Assembly: GCA_965113315.1 (NCBI GenBank)
Contig: OZ220365.1
Reading direction: 5' to 3' (one strand)
Source of the DNA: Podarcis vaucheri
Lineage: Eukaryota
DNA: 64,000 nucleotides
In this document: positions 2,420-11,434 of the stretch, piece after piece
How positions within the stretch are numbered: the stretch's first letter is position 1
Layout: each line of letters opens with the position of its first letter
Notes under the pieces: generated by a model
The model's database searches: none
Told to the model about the DNA's origin: nothing
What the model saw: only the letters and a program-made list of their open reading frames with translations
Made by a program: the position numbers and the translations under genes

Positions 2420-2989
2420 AACCCAGCCAAGACTTTAGCTTAGCTATCACTGCACCCAGCCACACCTTATTTCCCACGGCCGAAAGATGCACCCCATCAT
2501 CCCTAAACAGCGATGCCTCCTGAAAGCGAATCTCCGGATGTGCAATCACATCACCTCCCAGCTCAAAAACCTTTTTTGAGACAGCAGAATTAATCCGCTT
2601 TCTGACCCTTTCAGTGGCATCCGGGCAACGACTGCCCCTCCAAACACGGCGTTGCAAAAACTTTGACCAAAATATCTTTGCTGCCGGCACCATTGCACGC
2701 AGCACCTCCAGGTCCCTTAAAATCGCAGCACGCAAGGAAAAACAGTCCATGGAGACCAGGTCGTTCTCACCCAGCTGAATCACAATGGCCGCGGGCGGCC
2801 GTTCCACGCCCAACTGCCTCCTCACCAGTGGCAGAAACTCTGGCCATGACATTCCCCTTCTGGTCAGCCAAGAGACGTGCACGTGTGGAGAAAGACCGAG
2901 ACCTGGTCCCAATCCAAATCGCTGGGCCTCAACGCCGGCCCAATGCACGATGCTGTGCCCCACCATCCAGATGCGGACAGCCGCTAAAC
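2415..2989 (-). CDS. SGNH/GDSL-family hydrolase (esterase) domain
   Basis: Block I WMVGHS (GDS-like Ser), block III QLGENDL, block V DGVHL. No ATG ahead of block I except the Met inside it; preceded by a pyrimidine tract and CAG at 2992-2990. Confidence 0.88.
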
Positions 2990-3029
2990 CTGAGGTGAAT
3001 AAACAAAACAAATGTAAGAATATGAAATG

Positions 3030-4000
3030 TTAACGAACATAGTCTCTGAACGCGTCGGATTTCCAGCGGCCCAAATCCTTTATTCTGCTGGCTGACAGCC
3101 CCCAGTGCGCCGCTGTTGTGGCAGCACCAATCCTAAAAGAGTGGGGGGCAAAACCATGCGCCGAGCCACCGCAAGCCTTAATGGCCTTCCGCATCACCAA
3201 TGCAAACTGGCGTCTGGACAGAGGCAAACCATTCTCGTGCCTCAACAAGGGGCCATCCCCTGGAGCTCGGACAGCCAGGTACCTCCTTACATCCTTGACC
3301 GGGCAAGGTCCCGCCTCCCCTGTAGCCGGAAGCCGAATAAGGGCTCCCCTACCCTGTTGGTCAGTTTTCGAATTCCTAATCATAAGTCTCAGCTCCATTG
3401 GGGATAGCTGTACGTCCTGTAGCAATAAACCCCTGGAACGGCCAACCCTGTGCTCCTCCAACACAAGTTCACCAACCCTTAGGGCCCCAAAGAAGGCGAT
3501 AGAAAAGGCTGCGGAAAAAAGGCGAGCCTCATACCCAGACCAGCAAAGCTTCCTCAATTCCTTGCGCATCTTACACAGCAGGTCGAAGGATATTGGGTGC
3601 CGTGCGGCTGGTTGGGGAGGACAAAGTCTACCCCACCCTTCAAGGGCCTTACGCACCACAAACTTCGCGCAAGGATCCTTGTCAAATAAAGATTTACTGA
3701 AAAAGGCAATGGCGGCTGCCTGGATCCTTATCGTCTTGACTGCACGTCCCAACTGAAACAGGTGCGTCAAATATCTTAGCACCTGAGAGGATGAGGGAGA
3801 AGCCCTCATCTCCTCCCCTACCGACTGATATGTAAAGGCCAGAAAATCAGTCCAAGCTTTTCTGTATGATCTGAGGGTAGAAGAGGAAACAGAAGCAGCT
3901 ACTCCCTGAAAAACTAATTCCTGCCAAGGCTCCAGAGATGATCCGGGAAATATTCCGGACGTAACCGAGCCTCTGGAACCAGAAGTCTGAACCGCTCCAT
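3030..4000 (-). CDS. Tyrosine recombinase (integrase)
   Basis: AFFGALRVGE (catalytic R), SKTDQ (K), HSFRIGAAT (HxxR), LGRWKSDAFRDY (W/Y). The frame is open to 4019, upstream of the called ATG at 3809, and includes the typical N-terminal motif WQELV...STLRSYRKAWTDF. Confidence 0.95.
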
Positions 4001-5733
4001 CTGAAAACGGGACAGAGCATCAGCAATTTCATTAGACACTCCGGGGACAAAACGTGCAGAAAACACGATATTATAGCGTAAGCAATATAAAACAAAAACA
4101 CGCAAAAGGGCCGACACCCTAGGAGAGCGGGACGACAGCTTGGCCAGCACGTTCACTACCGCCAGGTTATCGGTCCAGAAGCAAACACGTCGGTCCCTGA
4201 ACTCATCGACCCACAAGTGCACTGCCACTGCAATGGGAAAGAACTCAAGAAAAGTTAGATCCCGCGTAATGTCTGTCCCTTGCCACTCCAGTGGCCAACG
4301 CATGGCACACCATCTTCCTTTCCAATAAAGACCGAAACCTTGTGAACCTGCGGCATCTGAATGCACCTGAAAGTCATTATGCAAGTTCAACGTGTCTTGC
4401 CATAACGACACCCCATTGAATTCTTCCAAGAATTCGAGCCAAATGCTGAGATCAGCCCGCACTTCTCTAGATAAACGGACCCGATGATGTGGGGCCTTCA
4501 AACCCACGGTAAGCCGGGCCAGGCGTGAACAAAAGGGGCGTCCAGGGGCCACCACCCTGCACGCGGAATTCAGGTGACCCAGCAGCGATTGAATCTGTCT
4601 AAGGGACACTTTCTCCAAAGGGAGCAATTCCTCAATGACCGTCTTCAAAGCAACCAGCTTATCCTTTGGCAAGCTGGAAGTTTGGGACACCGTATCCAAT
4701 AGGATACCCAGGTAAGTAAGTTGGGTTGCGGGGCCCTCTGTCTTGTCCGCTGCTAGCGGAACCCCCAGCTCCTGCGTAAGGTCAGCGAAAGCATGCAGCA
4801 ACACCGAGCAATTGCCAGAGTCACAATCTGAGGCCAATAAAAAATCATCCAAATAATGAGTGACCCCGCCCAGCCCGGTTTTCTGCTTGATGGCCCACTC
4901 CAAGAAGGTGCTGAACGACTCAAAGGCGGCACATGCTATCGAGCAGCCCATAGGCATGGCCTTGTCAAAATAAAATTTGCCCTCGAACCGAAAGCCTAGG
5001 AGCCAAAAATCCTCCGGGTGAATAGGCAATAATCGAAAAGCCGATTCGATATCGCATTTCGCCAATAAAGCAGCCCGTCCAAATTTTCGAATCATCTTAA
5101 TTGCATAATCAAGGGAGGCATACTTTACTGAGCAAAGTTCCTGAGGAATCACATCGTTGACCGAGGAACCCCTAGGATGCGATAGATTATGAATTAGACG
5201 AAATTCGCCAGGGGCCTTCTTTGGCACAATACCCAATGGTGATATGTGCAAATTGTGAAAAGGTGGGGCACAAAAGGGGCCCGCCATCCGATGCATGGAC
5301 ACTTCCTTAGCAATCTTTTTCCGGGCGATTTCAGGTAATTCACGAACTGACTTTTGATTAGGAGGATTCCGTGCCACGGGAGGCATGGCTACCGGAATCC
5401 GAAAGCCCACAGAAAAACCATCACTTAAGTAACTTGCAGCAGTCCTGTTGGGGTAAGATTGCAGCCAAATTTTAAGAGCCGGCAATCGTACCGGGGTGTG
5501 GGCCAATGATGTCAACACACTATTTTGCTGCTCCTGAGGTTGAAGGGAGGGGAGGGGCCGATTTGGGGGGTTGCTGAGAACCCCCTCTGCCTCCACGAAA
5601 GGGCCGCCTACCGCCAAAGCAAGAGGAAGCAGGATGCGATCCATTACACTTCTCGCAAATGTGTGCAAATCTACAGGCTGGACGCTGGCAAGAACCCCTA
5701 TTAAAGTCCCAGCATAACAAACGACGGCCAGAT
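3914..5733 (-). CDS. Reverse transcriptase + RNase H (DIRS/Ngaro type), overlapping the gag 3' end in another frame
   Basis: RT motifs SPLGIVPKK, FRLIHNLS, KCDIESAFR, MPMGCS, HYLDDFL, YLGI. RNase H motifs HSDAAG, FLEFFPI, WTDN, NEIADALSR. First ATG at 5644; frame is open upstream through a candidate acceptor at 5733. Confidence 0.95.
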
Positions 5734-7046
5734 CTGAAAGCCGAAAACTTCGGCTTCTGTTGCTCAGGCACTTTTTTATCTATCAGTGGAGCCACATGAG
5801 TAGTCCACACATCAAGATCCTTTCGATCCCAGCGGGCTGAGGGGATCTTGGCAGCGCGACGCCTGAAATTCTCATCATATTTGATCGCCGCCTTTTCTCC
5901 AGCCTTGGAGAATGCGGAGCGCACAATAGATAGATAAACTAACAGATGAAGGGACCTCCGTGGATAGGCTGCCACTACCACACCAGCAAAGACCTGGAAA
6001 CAGTCGAGCCAATGCTCGAAAGTCCTGACCACCGCAGAGGCCCCTGTACGCTTTTTGGATGAAGAACTTTCCTTTTCTTGATCCTCTGAAGGTGGGAGCA
6101 ATTTGAACATATCTACGTAGCGGCCATTTAAGATTCTGGACCGCAATTTTGACGACAAATGCGATCCCGGTATGATGTCCCTGGCGGAGTTGGTTGATAC
6201 TTTAACGTCAGGAACCAACACGCCATCTATACATTCTAGGACTGCTCCATATTGAGCTCTATGAGTGTTGGACCTTCGTTCCCAAGCCCACCTTGGAAGT
6301 CCAGAAACCGATTCGCCAAAACCCCAGTAAAGTTGCATATTACTACCCTCATCATCGGAACTAGACGAAGACGTACCAGAATGAGAGGAAGAAGTGTCGT
6401 CCCTCCTCCTCTTGGCGCGCTTCCGAGATGACTTCTTCTGGCGACGTTTTCCTCCCAATGACTTCCTGGCGGGTACAGGAAGGCTGTCTTCGACAGATGA
6501 CTCAGATTCGGGCTCCAGCTGAGATGGAACTGAAACAGACTGCACAGAGACAGCACGTGAGATGCCAGAACCCGAGGCCACCGCCACCGAATGCTGGGCG
6601 GACGCGCGCCTGCGAGTCGAATCTACCGAAGGGGCGCTTCTTCCTGAGGCCCTCCTAGTGGAGCGGCCTGACCGCCGAGGTTGACCCCGGCCTGCAGGTA
6701 AGACAGGGGACTGGGATAACTGGGGGTTCACAATCAAACCACCGGATGAAGACCCTTCTCCCCCATCTTCACTAGATGATGGTGAAGCCGGAGACGACGC
6801 CAACGCAGCAGGATGCTGCCTTCCAGACGTGGACGGCTGGGCGGAGCAGTGCTGCAAGAAACCATCCATCTCAGCTGCAAAGCGAGAAAGTGCTGCGGGG
6901 TCACCAGCCATGCTCGCCACCAATGACTGTACCCGCCCCACTGGTTGTCTAGCAGAAGGTGAGCGGAGCGCCTGGGATGGGCCTTTAATCGGCCGTTTTG
7001 CAGCGGTGGCAGGGCTGGAACGATTGGCGACCTTCTTCGGAGCCAT
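5520..7046 (-). CDS. Gag-like ORF1 (~508 aa): Ser/Arg-rich basic N-terminal half and C-terminal Cys/His zinc finger
   Basis: ATG at 7046 (MAPKK...). Basic cluster KRRQKKSSRKRAKRRR. Core W..YDENFRRRAA...RWD..D.D.W and finger CWDFNRGSCQRPACRFAHICEKCNGSHPASSC, typical of DIRS/Ngaro ORF1. Confidence 0.88.
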   Translation of the reverse strand: MAPKKVANRSSPATAAKRPIKGPSQALRSPSARQPVGRVQSLVASMAGDPAALSRFAAEMDGFLQHCSAQPSTSGRQHPAALASSPASPSSSEDGGEGSSSGGLIVNPQLSQSPVLPAGRGQPRRSGRSTRRASGRSAPSVDSTRRRASAQHSVAVASGSGISRAVSVQSVSVPSQLEPESESSVEDSLPVPARKSLGGKRRQKKSSRKRAKRRRDDTSSSHSGTSSSSSDDEGSNMQLYWGFGESVSGLPRWAWERRSNTHRAQYGAVLECIDGVLVPDVKVSTNSARDIIPGSHLSSKLRSRILNGRYVDMFKLLPPSEDQEKESSSSKKRTGASAVVRTFEHWLDCFQVFAGVVVAAYPRRSLHLLVYLSIVRSAFSKAGEKAAIKYDENFRRRAAKIPSARWDRKDLDVWTTHVAPLIDKKVPEQQKPKFSAFRSGRRLLCWDFNRGSCQRPACRFAHICEKCNGSHPASSCFGGRRPFRGGRGGSQQPPKSAPPLPSTSGAAK

Positions 7047-7559
7047 ACCTGCTAGCCGGAGATAAATCAAAACCAGTTAAACTTCACCAACCACCAAGAT
7101 TTTTTTTTTTAAATTATTTATTTATTTTATTTTATATATTTATATATAATAAGTTATTTATTTTAGATTATCAAATATATTTATTTATTTATTTAGGAAT
7201 AAACTAATACAATAAACAGTACAGTCTATTCACTGGTCAATTCGAGCAATACTTGAAGCAAAACAAACAATATTATAAGGTGGGTAAGTAACCCTATCTA
7301 TCTATCTATCTATTTCCTTCCTGACGTTACTTCAGGTATTTGACAATTAACTTGCAAAAACTTGGGCCAGGCTGCGGGGCTTCACAGCCAGGCCTGTGGG
7401 TGTAATACCCAAAGCGGCCTATAAAGAGGCCAGCTAGGCCGGTCCTATGAGAAAGGGGCGCAATGCCACTCTGAACCACTGGAGGGAGCCTGGTTTTACC
7501 AGGGCGCAATAGCGAAAAGCCGCCACTAGAGGGCCTGCAGCACCAATAGCCAGCCAGCA

Positions 7560-8300: not shown

Positions 8301-8545
8301 CTTTTAAAGACAACTTCAGGGGATATAAACTAAACTCAGAGAACAGCTGAGAAATAGAAAAAATGGGGAGGCAAGGGAAAAGCGCAGAAGGGAGAAGAAA
8401 TCGGGGGGGGGAGGAACGAAGGGCACAGAAAGAAGGGATAGGACAAAAGGCAATAATTCGTCTTAATATACAACCAACTCCCGACTCCAATGCTCCGTGA
8501 TCCGTTGCAGAAGCCGAGAGGACGCTCTAGTGTTAGGCGTCCTGC

Positions 8546-8552
8546 ATTTATA
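8546..8552 (-). promoter_or_regulatory. TATA box of the element's internal promoter
   Basis: TATAAAT 159 nt inside the 5' end; the relative has TATTTAA 167 nt inside its 5' end (60681-60687). Confidence 0.55.
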
Positions 8553-8859
8553 CCCTCGGCTCCCTCCTCCAAGATTTGCAACATCCAAAACTCCCCAGTA
8601 ACCCAGATTAACCCCTTATGGGCTTGGTTTCCCAAATCTGCCTAGCAACGACAGGGTGGCTTTTATTTCCCCAACCGCAACACGTGCTCTCATTTCAAGG
8701 AGAACACGATTTACAGTAATGCTGCAACTTGTGCACATTTAGTGTTACATGCACGACAAAAAAGTAAAAGGGGGTTGGGTTCTAGGAAAAATTACTTTGG
8801 CAAGCTCCCCACCACAGACAAACCCCACACGGCATTGAACCCAATGAGTTTTGACTGTA

Positions 8860-9123
8860 CAGTAGTACCTCAGGTTAAGTACTTAATTTGTTCTGGAGGT
8901 CCGTCCTTTTTTTTTTTTAATGATATTTATTGAAAAACTGGAGGTCCGTTCTTAACCTGAAACTGTTCTTATGGGGCCTCCCACTGCTGCCGCACCACCA
9001 GAGCATGATTTCTGTTCTCATCCTGAAGCAAAGTTCTTAACCTGAAGCACTATTTCTGGGTTAGCGGAGTCTGTAACCTGAAGCATATGTAACCTGAAGT
9101 GTATGTAACCCGAGGTACCACTG
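8860..9123. mobile_element. Tc1/mariner-pogo-type MITE
   Basis: TA-CAGT(A/G)GTACCTC ... GAGGTACCACTG-TA terminal inverted repeats. Confidence 0.85.
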
Positions 9124-9679
9124 TATGTAATTTGGCTTTAGGAGTGATCCCCTTGCATAAGTTGTGGGCCTGCTGTAGAGCTGGGGACAGACGTCTGCCT
9201 GAAGCCCTGGACAACGGGTAGCAGAAACAGAGCCTCAGGGACACCATAGGGGAAGCCACAACTATGATTTAGAATGGAGCATGTGAGGTGGGGGTGGGGT
9301 GCCGAATATTAGCATCACGCAATGCGCTGCTGAAATTTGAGACCCCAAGTTCAGCTGCTGTGGGTAGCCAATGTGGTGCCCTTCGGAAGCTGTTTGATTA
9401 AACTCCCATCAGCCCCAGTCAGTATGACCTATCGTTGAGGGAGACCGGAGTTCTAGTTGAGCAACATCTGGAACGCACCACTCTGGCATTCCATGCCTTA
9501 AAGGCTTTGTAAACCCTGAAAACTTTTACTTCAGATGAAAGTGGAATGAGCAGGTACACAGTGAACAGTAATCCTCCTTTCAAATCCCCTTGAATATTTG
9601 GAGTGGGAGGCAGGGAACTATAATTTCTCCAACAATCATAGCCATTATAAGGGTATGTGGGCCATACCTGTGAGTATGG

Positions 9680-9680
<1 letters not shown>

Positions 9681-9728
<48 letters not shown>
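9681..9728. repeat. (AAT)n microsatellite
   Basis: Seen directly; similar tracts at 17176, 19901, 29546 and 62527; (GT)n at 164, (GGA)n at 42688, (CT)n(GT)n at 51843, (GGGA)n at 60580. Confidence 0.95.
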
Positions 9729-10001
9729 TCATATAATCCATCTCCCAAAAGCCATGATGTTCACAACACTGTGGATCTAACAACTGGATCGATATTGTTC
9801 TGAACTTACGTTAGATAACATTTTCATGTATTTTTTTAGAAGCAGAAAACATCACCAGCATTAGGGAAGATTAAAGAATGTGGGTGTTAAATAATAACCA
9901 CAGTGACTGCCTATGACCTGACATTCTTCCCTGCCCGATGTGGTCAGGGTGTAACTTGGTAATTATAATTGGTATTTGTGGCAATTTATAATTGTCACTG
10001 A

Positions 10002-10171
10002 ACTTAGTTTGCAAAACTTTTCGGACTAAGCATGCAGTGACAAGAAAAGTACATGAAGGCTTGTTTAGCTTGTCAAGAGATTTGACTGCACTTAGTTTGC
10101 AAAACTTTTCGGACTAAGCATGCAGTGACAAGAAAAGTACATGAAGGCTTGTTTAGCTTGTCAAGAGATTT
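10002..10171. repeat. 82-bp direct duplication, period 88
   Basis: 10002-10083 is identical to 10090-10171. Confidence 0.9.
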
Positions 10172-11014
10172 AGGAATGTACTCTAGTTGGTCTTCCTCTC
10201 AATCTGAGTTTGGGATAATTTATTCATTAGTTGGAGAGCGCAGTAATTTGAATGCACCATTACAAGAATGCAGATATTGCTATCTGCTACTTTCCAGAAA
10301 TCTTGCCTCCAGTGTATGCTTCATTTATATAGATGGTGATTATGTTTTATTGATTAAAATCTTTAAAAATGCATGGCACAGGGTTTACATAATGGGAAAA
10401 TTAAGCACGCATTTTAACAGAATAACTTCTTTTTCAGGTGATTAGCAGTGGCTTTTAGCAGTAAGCAGCTGTAAACATTTTCAGTAATAATAAGCAAATG
10501 TTGCAGTAATACAGGAAATGCAAACTATATTAAAAGACTGCACTTATCAAAGGAACATGTCCTGCACCACCTCTTTTCCATTTTGTAGCTGCAATAGATA
10601 AATATTTTTTTCCCCAAAATGCAAAGAGTATCTGTGCTACCTTTGGAGTTATTTCATACTTGGAATGTTATATAAAGCTATGGTCAATGTTCTGCCCCGC
10701 AATGGACAAAATAGTGGGGCCAAGTCACTTCGGCAGACCGGTACAGAGAGGGGAGGGACGCAACAACGACTAGGTCACCCCGGGGACAACATGTCAGCAG
10801 GAGTTCCAGATTGGCTGTGCCAGCACATTTGCATCTGCACTGACTCCGCCTCTTTCCCCATCCAAATTCCAGTATTGTTACAAGTGTCTGAATGGATCCC
10901 ACAGGATCACTGCTCACTGGGTCCCTCAAACATCCACCTCCCAGAGGGTGATGGTATTTTTTGCTGAAACCATACGTTCATATTACCTTCACAACACTGC
11001 TTCCACTGGGTCTA

Positions 11015-11231
11015 CAGTGGTACTTCGGGTTACATACACTTCAGGTTACATACGCTTCAGGTTACAGACTCCGCTAACCCAGAAATAGTACCTCGGGTTA
11101 AGAACTTTGCTTCAGGATGAGAACAGAAATCGTGCTCTGGCGGCACAGCGGCAGCAGGAGGCCACATTAGCTAAAGTGGTGCTTCAGGTTAAGAACAGAT
11201 TCAAGTTAAGAACGGACCTCTGGAACAAATT
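11015..11231. mobile_element. Same MITE family as 8860-9123, opposite orientation, one end truncated
   Basis: Reverse complement of the 8860-9123 sequence; TA-CAGTGGTAC start. Confidence 0.8.
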
Positions 11232-11434
11232 AGAACTTTGTTGGCTTCATCAAAAAACAAACAACTAACAATGCGATGCTTGGTTTCAAAAGTGAGTGGA
11301 ACACATGCCAACTTAAATTATGCTAGGGTAAAACATCCATATTCCAAACTCAGGAGTTCAGAAGCAGGACTACTGTAAGATAAAAACAAGCCTTTAAAAC
11401 AGTTTGACTTGTAGTCCCAGCAAAGGAAGAAAAG

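Follow-up and report, generated by a model that had tools for sequence, protein, structure and literature searches.

A Ngaro retrotransposon copy on the minus strand of a 64,000-nucleotide stretch of Podarcis vaucheri DNA (assembly GCA_965113315.1, contig OZ220365.1; the whole stretch is called the window here) probably produces four proteins from one transcript, judging from its sequence and that of its relatives: Gag, a Gag-Pol fusion made by a +1 ribosomal slip, and two proteins, a leader-recombinase and a leader-esterase, made by splicing. Transcription would begin at a single promoter in the A1 repeat, and in the family of the window copy a leader intron would end at 7048. Gag would be translated from the unspliced RNA, and its fusion to reverse transcriptase (RT) plus RNase H (RH) would arise by slippage at CCC_UUU_CGU, where tRNA-Phe would re-pair from UUU to UUC, as for PA-X. 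The tyrosine recombinase (YR) and the SGNH esterase would be reached by alternative splicing of one gag donor, with last exon base 6377, to acceptors whose first exon bases are 4000 and 2989. The basic leader, common to all four proteins, could bring the recombinase and the esterase to the nucleus or the particle.

The original prediction, made from the sequence alone, had a single phase-1 donor in gag, CTG|GTACGT (6371-6379), spliced to RT as well as to YR and SGNH. Recomputation gives the same leader exon (6377-7046), 223 codons plus one base of the gag-like open reading frame (ORF; 5520-7046, 508 amino acids), and puts the acceptors in front of 5733, 4000 and 2989 in phase 1 of their respective ORFs, with fused lengths of 829, 546 and 414 amino acids reproduced by arithmetic. 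It was right that YR and SGNH have no ATG ahead of their conserved N-terminal motifs, since the first in-frame ATGs lie at YR codon 71 (3809) and at 2966 in SGNH, the latter within the IWMVGHS motif. The two competing AGs that it listed are in phases 0 and 2 as described, with positions one base off (the exon starts are 3905 and 3870). When splice sites in the window were scored with a consensus matrix, the donor ranked 8 of 387 GTs and the acceptors ranked 11 (YR), 16 (RT) and 17 (SGNH) of 402 AGs, and the chance that three acceptors all share the phase of one donor is 1 in 27. As these single-sequence scores are not outstanding, the case depends on comparison with relatives, for which we used 24 close copies, 20 loci of a second family (family 2; RT 60-70% identical), 20 mid-distance loci, 10 further full-length loci and a distant set of 80 metagenome loci (RT 38-51% identical). 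Conservation of site and phase in related elements, the check that the original prediction proposed for itself, holds for the donor and for the acceptors at 4000 and 2989, all three of which it raises above chance. Among the matches listed for family 2, 24 of 30 loci are concentrated on one contig of 41 Mb (G000:C41).

The YR acceptor (4000-4019) is hidden in the RNase H codons for ADALSRFQ. CAG followed by ATG is found there in all 59 anchored own-genome elements (65 examined), in which control Gln codons are CAG in 58% of cases. In the distant set, where 60 of 80 loci could be anchored and clustering at 75% gave 41 clusters, the acceptor codon is CAG in all 37 clusters that bear Gln and CAA in none (control RT/RH codons 46% CAG; binomial p 3e-13); the remaining four clusters have a CAG two codons further on. 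Invariant codons make up seven of the eight that precede the acceptor, compared with 65 of the 351 across the RT core. Relative to RNase H, YR occupies the -1 frame in 53 of 54 distant loci. In 48 of 54, a stop codon between -16 and +20 bases from the motif closes the YR frame, so the YR ORF begins at the acceptor.

An overlap in the -1 frame would also be expected if ribosomes moved from RNase H into YR by a -1 frameshift, the splice-like sites then reflecting protein conservation. Poulter and Butler (2015) thought that YR is probably translated by frameshifting in the RH/YR overlap, as quoted in a newt paper of 2026 (PMC13003380). However, the overlap contains a canonical X_XXY_YYZ heptamer in 2 of 65 own-genome elements and in 4 of 59 distant ones, and the positions of these heptamers are scattered. 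The 37:0 preference for CAG over CAA goes beyond protein conservation, which therefore cannot account for the acceptor, and there are genomic copies in which leader and YR are already joined. Frameshifting into YR is for these reasons very improbable, and splicing from 6377 to 4000 is very probably how a leader-YR protein would be made.

Gene models and genomic copies bear on the same joint. RefSeq Podarcis model P0039 joins leader to YR exactly at the predicted site, and P0026, P0030, P0038, P0044 and P0046 have a joint between the basic cluster and YR in other lacertid families; a low-complexity leader also precedes YR in gecko, cordylid, frog, caecilian and sea-urchin models, a comparison made at the protein level. 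In the genome, 14 of 40 scored matches cross the leader-YR joint uninterrupted (12 joints were inspected), and several of these joined copies retain A1 and B1-A2-B2. The joined family (L201-L210 and L231-L235; for example G000:C42:47135239-47135645) comprises at least 14 copies without RT, in which other DNA replaces most of the 5' part of gag and, in the five copies examined, YR stays open for about 258 codons before its frame breaks. These copies look like a non-autonomous family born from spliced RNA. In assembled contigs X1-X4 (four of six runs), which behave like genomic DNA, none of the 15 joints listed out of 70 is one of the predicted joints, a result that counts neither for nor against the splices.

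The SGNH acceptor lies in a non-coding spacer with a pyrimidine tract (2989-3029), which varies in length from 29 to 118 bases across elements. It is in phase 1 in all 69 anchored elements (75 examined), and in 68 of these there is no other AG within 25 bases upstream. In the window copy YR and SGNH share a frame with one TAA between them, and an ATG lies upstream in 20 of 74 YR frames, both of which would suit expression without any splicing, with YR translated from an internal ATG or by reinitiation and SGNH by read-through of the YR stop. We regard this as hardly credible, as the SGNH frame relative to YR is 0, 1 or 2 in 34, 16 and 19 elements, that is, out of frame in 35 of 69, while the phase of the acceptor is constant, and 54 of 74 YR frames have no ATG ahead of the first conserved motif. 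Among 20 longer SGNH proteins, 14 are leader-SGNH fusions at the 2989 joint (seven of them 413-414 amino acids long, as predicted), two are YR-SGNH fusions and four are fusions to host genes. It is therefore highly likely, from the constant phase and the shared joint, that leader-SGNH would be made by splicing from 6377 to 2989. Silent-site conservation and gene models with the same joint now stand behind both of these originally proposed splices, with intron-less genomic copies in addition for YR.

Three further observations concern the SGNH exon. Models P0015-P0018, from the two genera Zootoca and Podarcis, are long, SR-rich, ZNF638-like host gene models. They end in a Ngaro SGNH exon, reached through the same acceptor, and this esterase exon may have been domesticated. 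At G000:C1:22192014-22192592, an SGNH match lies within an open frame of 533 amino acids, a length that matches YR and SGNH together; the YR stop may have been lost in this copy. A chimeric short family (L217-L222, L237 and L238) has A1 and degenerate inner DNA, followed by an A-rich tract and then by the SGNH exon with B1-A2-B2, and is abundant, providing about 32 of the top matches in one leader-SGNH search; L217-L222 were considered as leader-SGNH copies and not counted, having only 8 bases in common with the end of the donor exon.

The donor is conserved as well. It could be anchored in 55 of 65 own-genome elements, with GTA after the cut in all 55 and G before it in 54, where GGT makes up 33% of the other gag Gly codons. 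When the best phase-1 donor located upstream of the gag core is taken in each of 22 distant gags, its score averages 4.25 bits, compared with 2.71 ± 0.36 bits (maximum 3.50) in 300 synonymous shuffles. The leader exon is the N-terminal part of the RefSeq fusion models P0003 and P0039. The Lys/Arg-rich cluster that precedes the donor (6402-6449) may serve in nuclear targeting or RNA binding; such a cluster precedes the joint in 14 of 20 SGNH models and is also found in family-2 YR models. The sequence features of a U2-type cassette, namely a GT donor, YAG acceptors, matching phase and conservation beyond coding need, are thus present for the donor, YR and SGNH, and they are incomplete for RT. 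In family 2 (L061-L080), 16 of 18 elements carry another strong donor in phase 1, G|GTAAG, located 29 bases ahead of the zinc-finger Cys; it could yield a longer Gag-YR or Gag-SGNH form.

How is RT expressed? The RT/RNase H ORF (3914-5779) lies in the +1 frame relative to gag, and just past the CCCH-type zinc finger and the following Cys/His region of Gag (5619-5714) the gag frame reads CCC TTT CGT (5603-5595). This motif is found in 58 of 65 own-genome elements, among which the Phe codon is TTT in 58, the preceding codon CCC in 54 and the next codon CGN in 56 (controls: TTT 52-57%, CGN 53-62%). In three family-2 elements (L072, L074 and L076), the RT frame is closed 15-16 codons upstream of the motif and open downstream. 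Of the distant loci, 51 of 68 have gag and RT in the +1 arrangement and 5 in the -1 arrangement. Within the overlap, the gag frame contains TTT_CGN in 21 of 34 distant clusters, and TTT_CGN outnumbers TTC_CGN by 26 to 2, although TTT and TTC themselves occur 84 and 77 times. Counted by frame, the TTTCG pentamer is found 26, 2 and 4 times, with the gag frame highest. In 1000 synonymous shuffles that kept RT open, the number of pairs was 11.1 ± 2.3, at most 20, and the number of elements 9.7 ± 2.0, at most 16; the observed values were never reached. As at PA-X-type sites, UUU_CGN lies in the upstream frame, within the overlap with a +1 ORF, and is conserved at silent sites; the E-site codon of such sites, UCC, is replaced by CCC in 54 of 58 elements, is TCC in one and varies in the distant clusters. 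We consider it likely on this pattern that Gag-Pol, which would be 1043 amino acids long by arithmetic, is made by a +1 slip at CCC_UUU_CGU.

RT could alternatively be reached through a short intron late in gag, for example one that runs, in family 2, from G|GTAAG to an acceptor in the RT frame beyond the zinc finger, with CCCTTTCG serving as a splicing signal. The late phase-1 donor in 16 of 18 family-2 elements, phase-1 AGs lower down in many elements, and RefSeq models P0146, P0147 and P0149, which bridge gag to RT near there, would be consistent with this idea. Yet the bridge differs in each of the three models, the window family is without the late donor, and no downstream acceptor is common to the families. 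In addition, in distant elements TTTCG is bound to the reading frame of gag (26 versus 2 and 4), which a splicing signal need not be, leaving the late intron quite improbable. Among copies near the slip site, L223-L227 and L230 have gag and RT in one frame, with one G fewer in the G run right after TTT CGN, while the near-identical L228 and L229 keep two frames; the one-frame copies may reflect a homopolymer slip, a copying error or an assembly error, and were not counted as support.

The original prediction had the same donor spliced to 5733 as well, making RT an 829-amino-acid leader-RT fusion, and this part of it did not survive the comparison. The proposed acceptor (5733-5747) is a genuine phase-1 AG, which is the start of a Gag Arg codon, and with its pyrimidine run it is shared by 24 close copies out of 25 and by 18 mid-distance copies out of 24 (8 of these 18 belonging to one subfamily; 8 elements were not anchored); the RT frame is open from 5733 onward, and model P0144 joins leader to RT, though at a lower site. 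However, the AG is present in 0 of 18 family-2 copies, in which a donor, G|GTAAG, occupies the region, and is missing in six mid-distance copies (L109, L112-L115 and L117), of which L112-L114 have RT-frame stops at or just past the site. The peptide expected after the 5733 joint is in none of the proteins compared, including the 120 RT matches listed. Since the AG is lost across families, it cannot be a general route to RT, and a leader-RT fusion spliced at 5733 is unlikely for the window copy; 5733 would be at most a subfamily-specific side route. The conserved +1 motif appears to explain RT better than this splice. The broader claim of the original prediction, four proteins from one promoter with a common N-terminal module, still stands with Gag-Pol made by frameshifting, because Gag-Pol would likewise begin with the leader.

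Several points weigh against this expression plan. Because the own-genome copies are relatives of one another, counts over them are not independent observations, and the 14 joined leader-YR copies are probably one amplified event. In the long relatives L110 and L236, the same six bases end both the exon and the intron, which makes a microhomology deletion a possible origin of the joined copies; the short joined copies differ from this six-base end by one base. No family-2 leader-YR genomic copy was found among 98 scored candidates, and no clean intron-less leader-SGNH genomic copy among the 101 scored candidates in each of three fusion-protein searches. Upstream ATGs are present in 20 of 73 SGNH frames, in addition to the YR frames mentioned above. 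The RefSeq models are computational gene predictions, and six of them (P0005, P0006, P0033, P0034, P0052 and P0054) join the same pieces otherwise. The best distant donor is in phase 1 in 18 of 22 gags, which is inside the shuffle range (13.0 ± 2.1, maximum 19), and the second donor of family 2 is not explained by the plan. TTT_CGN is absent in 13 of 34 distant clusters, five of which have TTT_CAA. CCC in the E-site position is reported to cut PA-X slippage by 40-70% (PMC3498833). Finally, the splices in RNA of the window copy, the ribosomal slip at its site and targeting by the leader are what we infer from these sequences.

By its repeats, ORF order and domains, the element (8712-1962) is a Ngaro-like tyrosine-recombinase retrotransposon of the order DIRS and an ordinary member of this known family, whose anatomy has been described for Xenopus (PMC9210276; PMC6681497). 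The split direct repeats A1...B1-A2-B2 are seen in sibling copies (80-94% identity); the window copy, truncated at its 3' end, has A1 (8497-8712), which matches the A2 that comes after B1 in the siblings, and B1 (1962-2386), where it stops without A2-B2. Overlapping gag-like, RT/RNase H and YR ORFs follow in that order, no methyltransferase domain is present and an SGNH hydrolase ORF comes after YR. Matches to CCCH domains in Gag are weak and under the Pfam cut-off; RVT_1 (E 3.6e-12) is the sole domain match of the RT ORF, which ends shortly past ADALSR. The YR exon (3030-4000; ORF 4019-3030), in the -1 frame relative to RNase H, matches Phage_integrase (E 7.7e-5) and the SGNH/GDSL hydrolase exon (2415-2989; ORF 3029-2415) matches Lipase_GDSL_2 (E 2.4e-4), both below the curated cut-offs; the latter exon contains the motifs GHS, GEND and DGVH. 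The nearest named proteins come from lacertid lizards.

At the 5' end, a TATA-like box in A1 (8552-8547) is kept in all 10 sequences compared and may be part of the promoter. The gag acceptor TAGCAG|GT ATG that the original prediction placed at 7048 is present, as a tandem TAGCAG (7048-7053) that is conserved in family 1 while the DNA upstream diverges (homology begins at about 7090); in family 2, TAGCAG is not directly ahead of the gag ATG. It is likely, given this pattern, to be the end of a 5' leader intron in the window family, the donor of which was searched for and not found. In the 5' leader, most of which diverges, a small hairpin-like block (8302-8248; G run, C run, G run) is conserved between siblings and is a possible packaging or priming element. 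Immediately 5' of A1 lies an element with long inverted ends (8863-11232; ends 8884-9125 and 11013-11232), likely a non-autonomous DNA transposon.

The feature is real and belongs to a known family, and its expression plan appears to be undescribed in the open-access literature searched: we found no account of such splicing and +1 slippage in the main texts, although mention in Poulter and Butler (2015) or Goodwin and Poulter (2004) is possible. Neither a splicing nor a +1 model appears in the available parts of PMC7192593, PMC3783388, PMC8547959, PMC3266345, PMC9341512 and PMC5009743, and DIRS and Ngaro are unmentioned in the available part of a 2016 frameshifting review. The plan reverses the one published guess that we found, recombinase frameshifting, in favor of splicing for the recombinase and esterase and a +1 slip for RT. 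It is somewhat probable that animal Ngaro elements, from lizards to distant metagenome relatives, share one code: a UUU_CGN +1 slip for Gag-Pol, an acceptor hidden in ADALSRxQ for leader-YR, and esterase-like genes as extra 3' exons, with spliced RNAs able to re-enter the genome as non-autonomous elements. If this is true, an abundant family of animal retrotransposons would join the RNA viruses in using the UUU_CGN slip, the real Ngaro proteins would be redefined as all starting with the Gag leader, and an explanation would be at hand for many 'uncharacterized LOC' gene models of lizards.

Retroviruses and long terminal repeat (LTR) elements combine a gag-pol frameshift with a spliced env, and Ty1 and Ty3 use +1 shifts. 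The plan proposed here resembles theirs in having one promoter, unspliced RNA for Gag and Gag-Pol, and spliced subgenomic RNA for the 3' genes. It would differ in that the spliced products retain a 223-amino-acid piece of Gag, and in that the integration enzyme itself is a spliced product, with its acceptor inside RNase H codons. Among DIRS elements, Xenopus DIRS-53_XT (PMC9210276) has the same A1...B1-A2-B2 repeats, overlapping gag, RT/RH and YR ORFs and an extra SGNH ORF; neither 'splic' nor 'intron' occurs in the available part of that account, whereas here YR and SGNH are likely made by splicing and RT by a +1 slip. The slip site itself resembles UCC_UUU_CGU of influenza A PA-X (PMC3498833), sharing the P-site slip on UUU_C, the CGN that follows and the +1 direction, and related UUU_CGN sites are found in amalgaviruses, fijiviruses and chronic bee paralysis virus (PMC3498833; PMC5052127). 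PA-X slippage is low, at about 1% (0.7-1.3%; PMC3498833), which is compatible with Gag-Pol ratios. Unlike in PA-X, the E-site codon here is CCC, the host is a retrotransposon and the slip is predicted from sequence. Finally, an SGNH esterase fused to an N-terminal retrotransposon module is also found in ZfL2-1 ORF1p of non-LTR retrotransposons, in which the esterase binds phospholipids and a coiled coil dimerises (PMC3905857). Sequence similarity of the Ngaro SGNH to the ZfL2-1 structure 4c1b is not significant (E 0.97), and, whereas ZfL2-1 ORF1p is encoded by a single ORF, the fusion in the Ngaro element would come from splicing.

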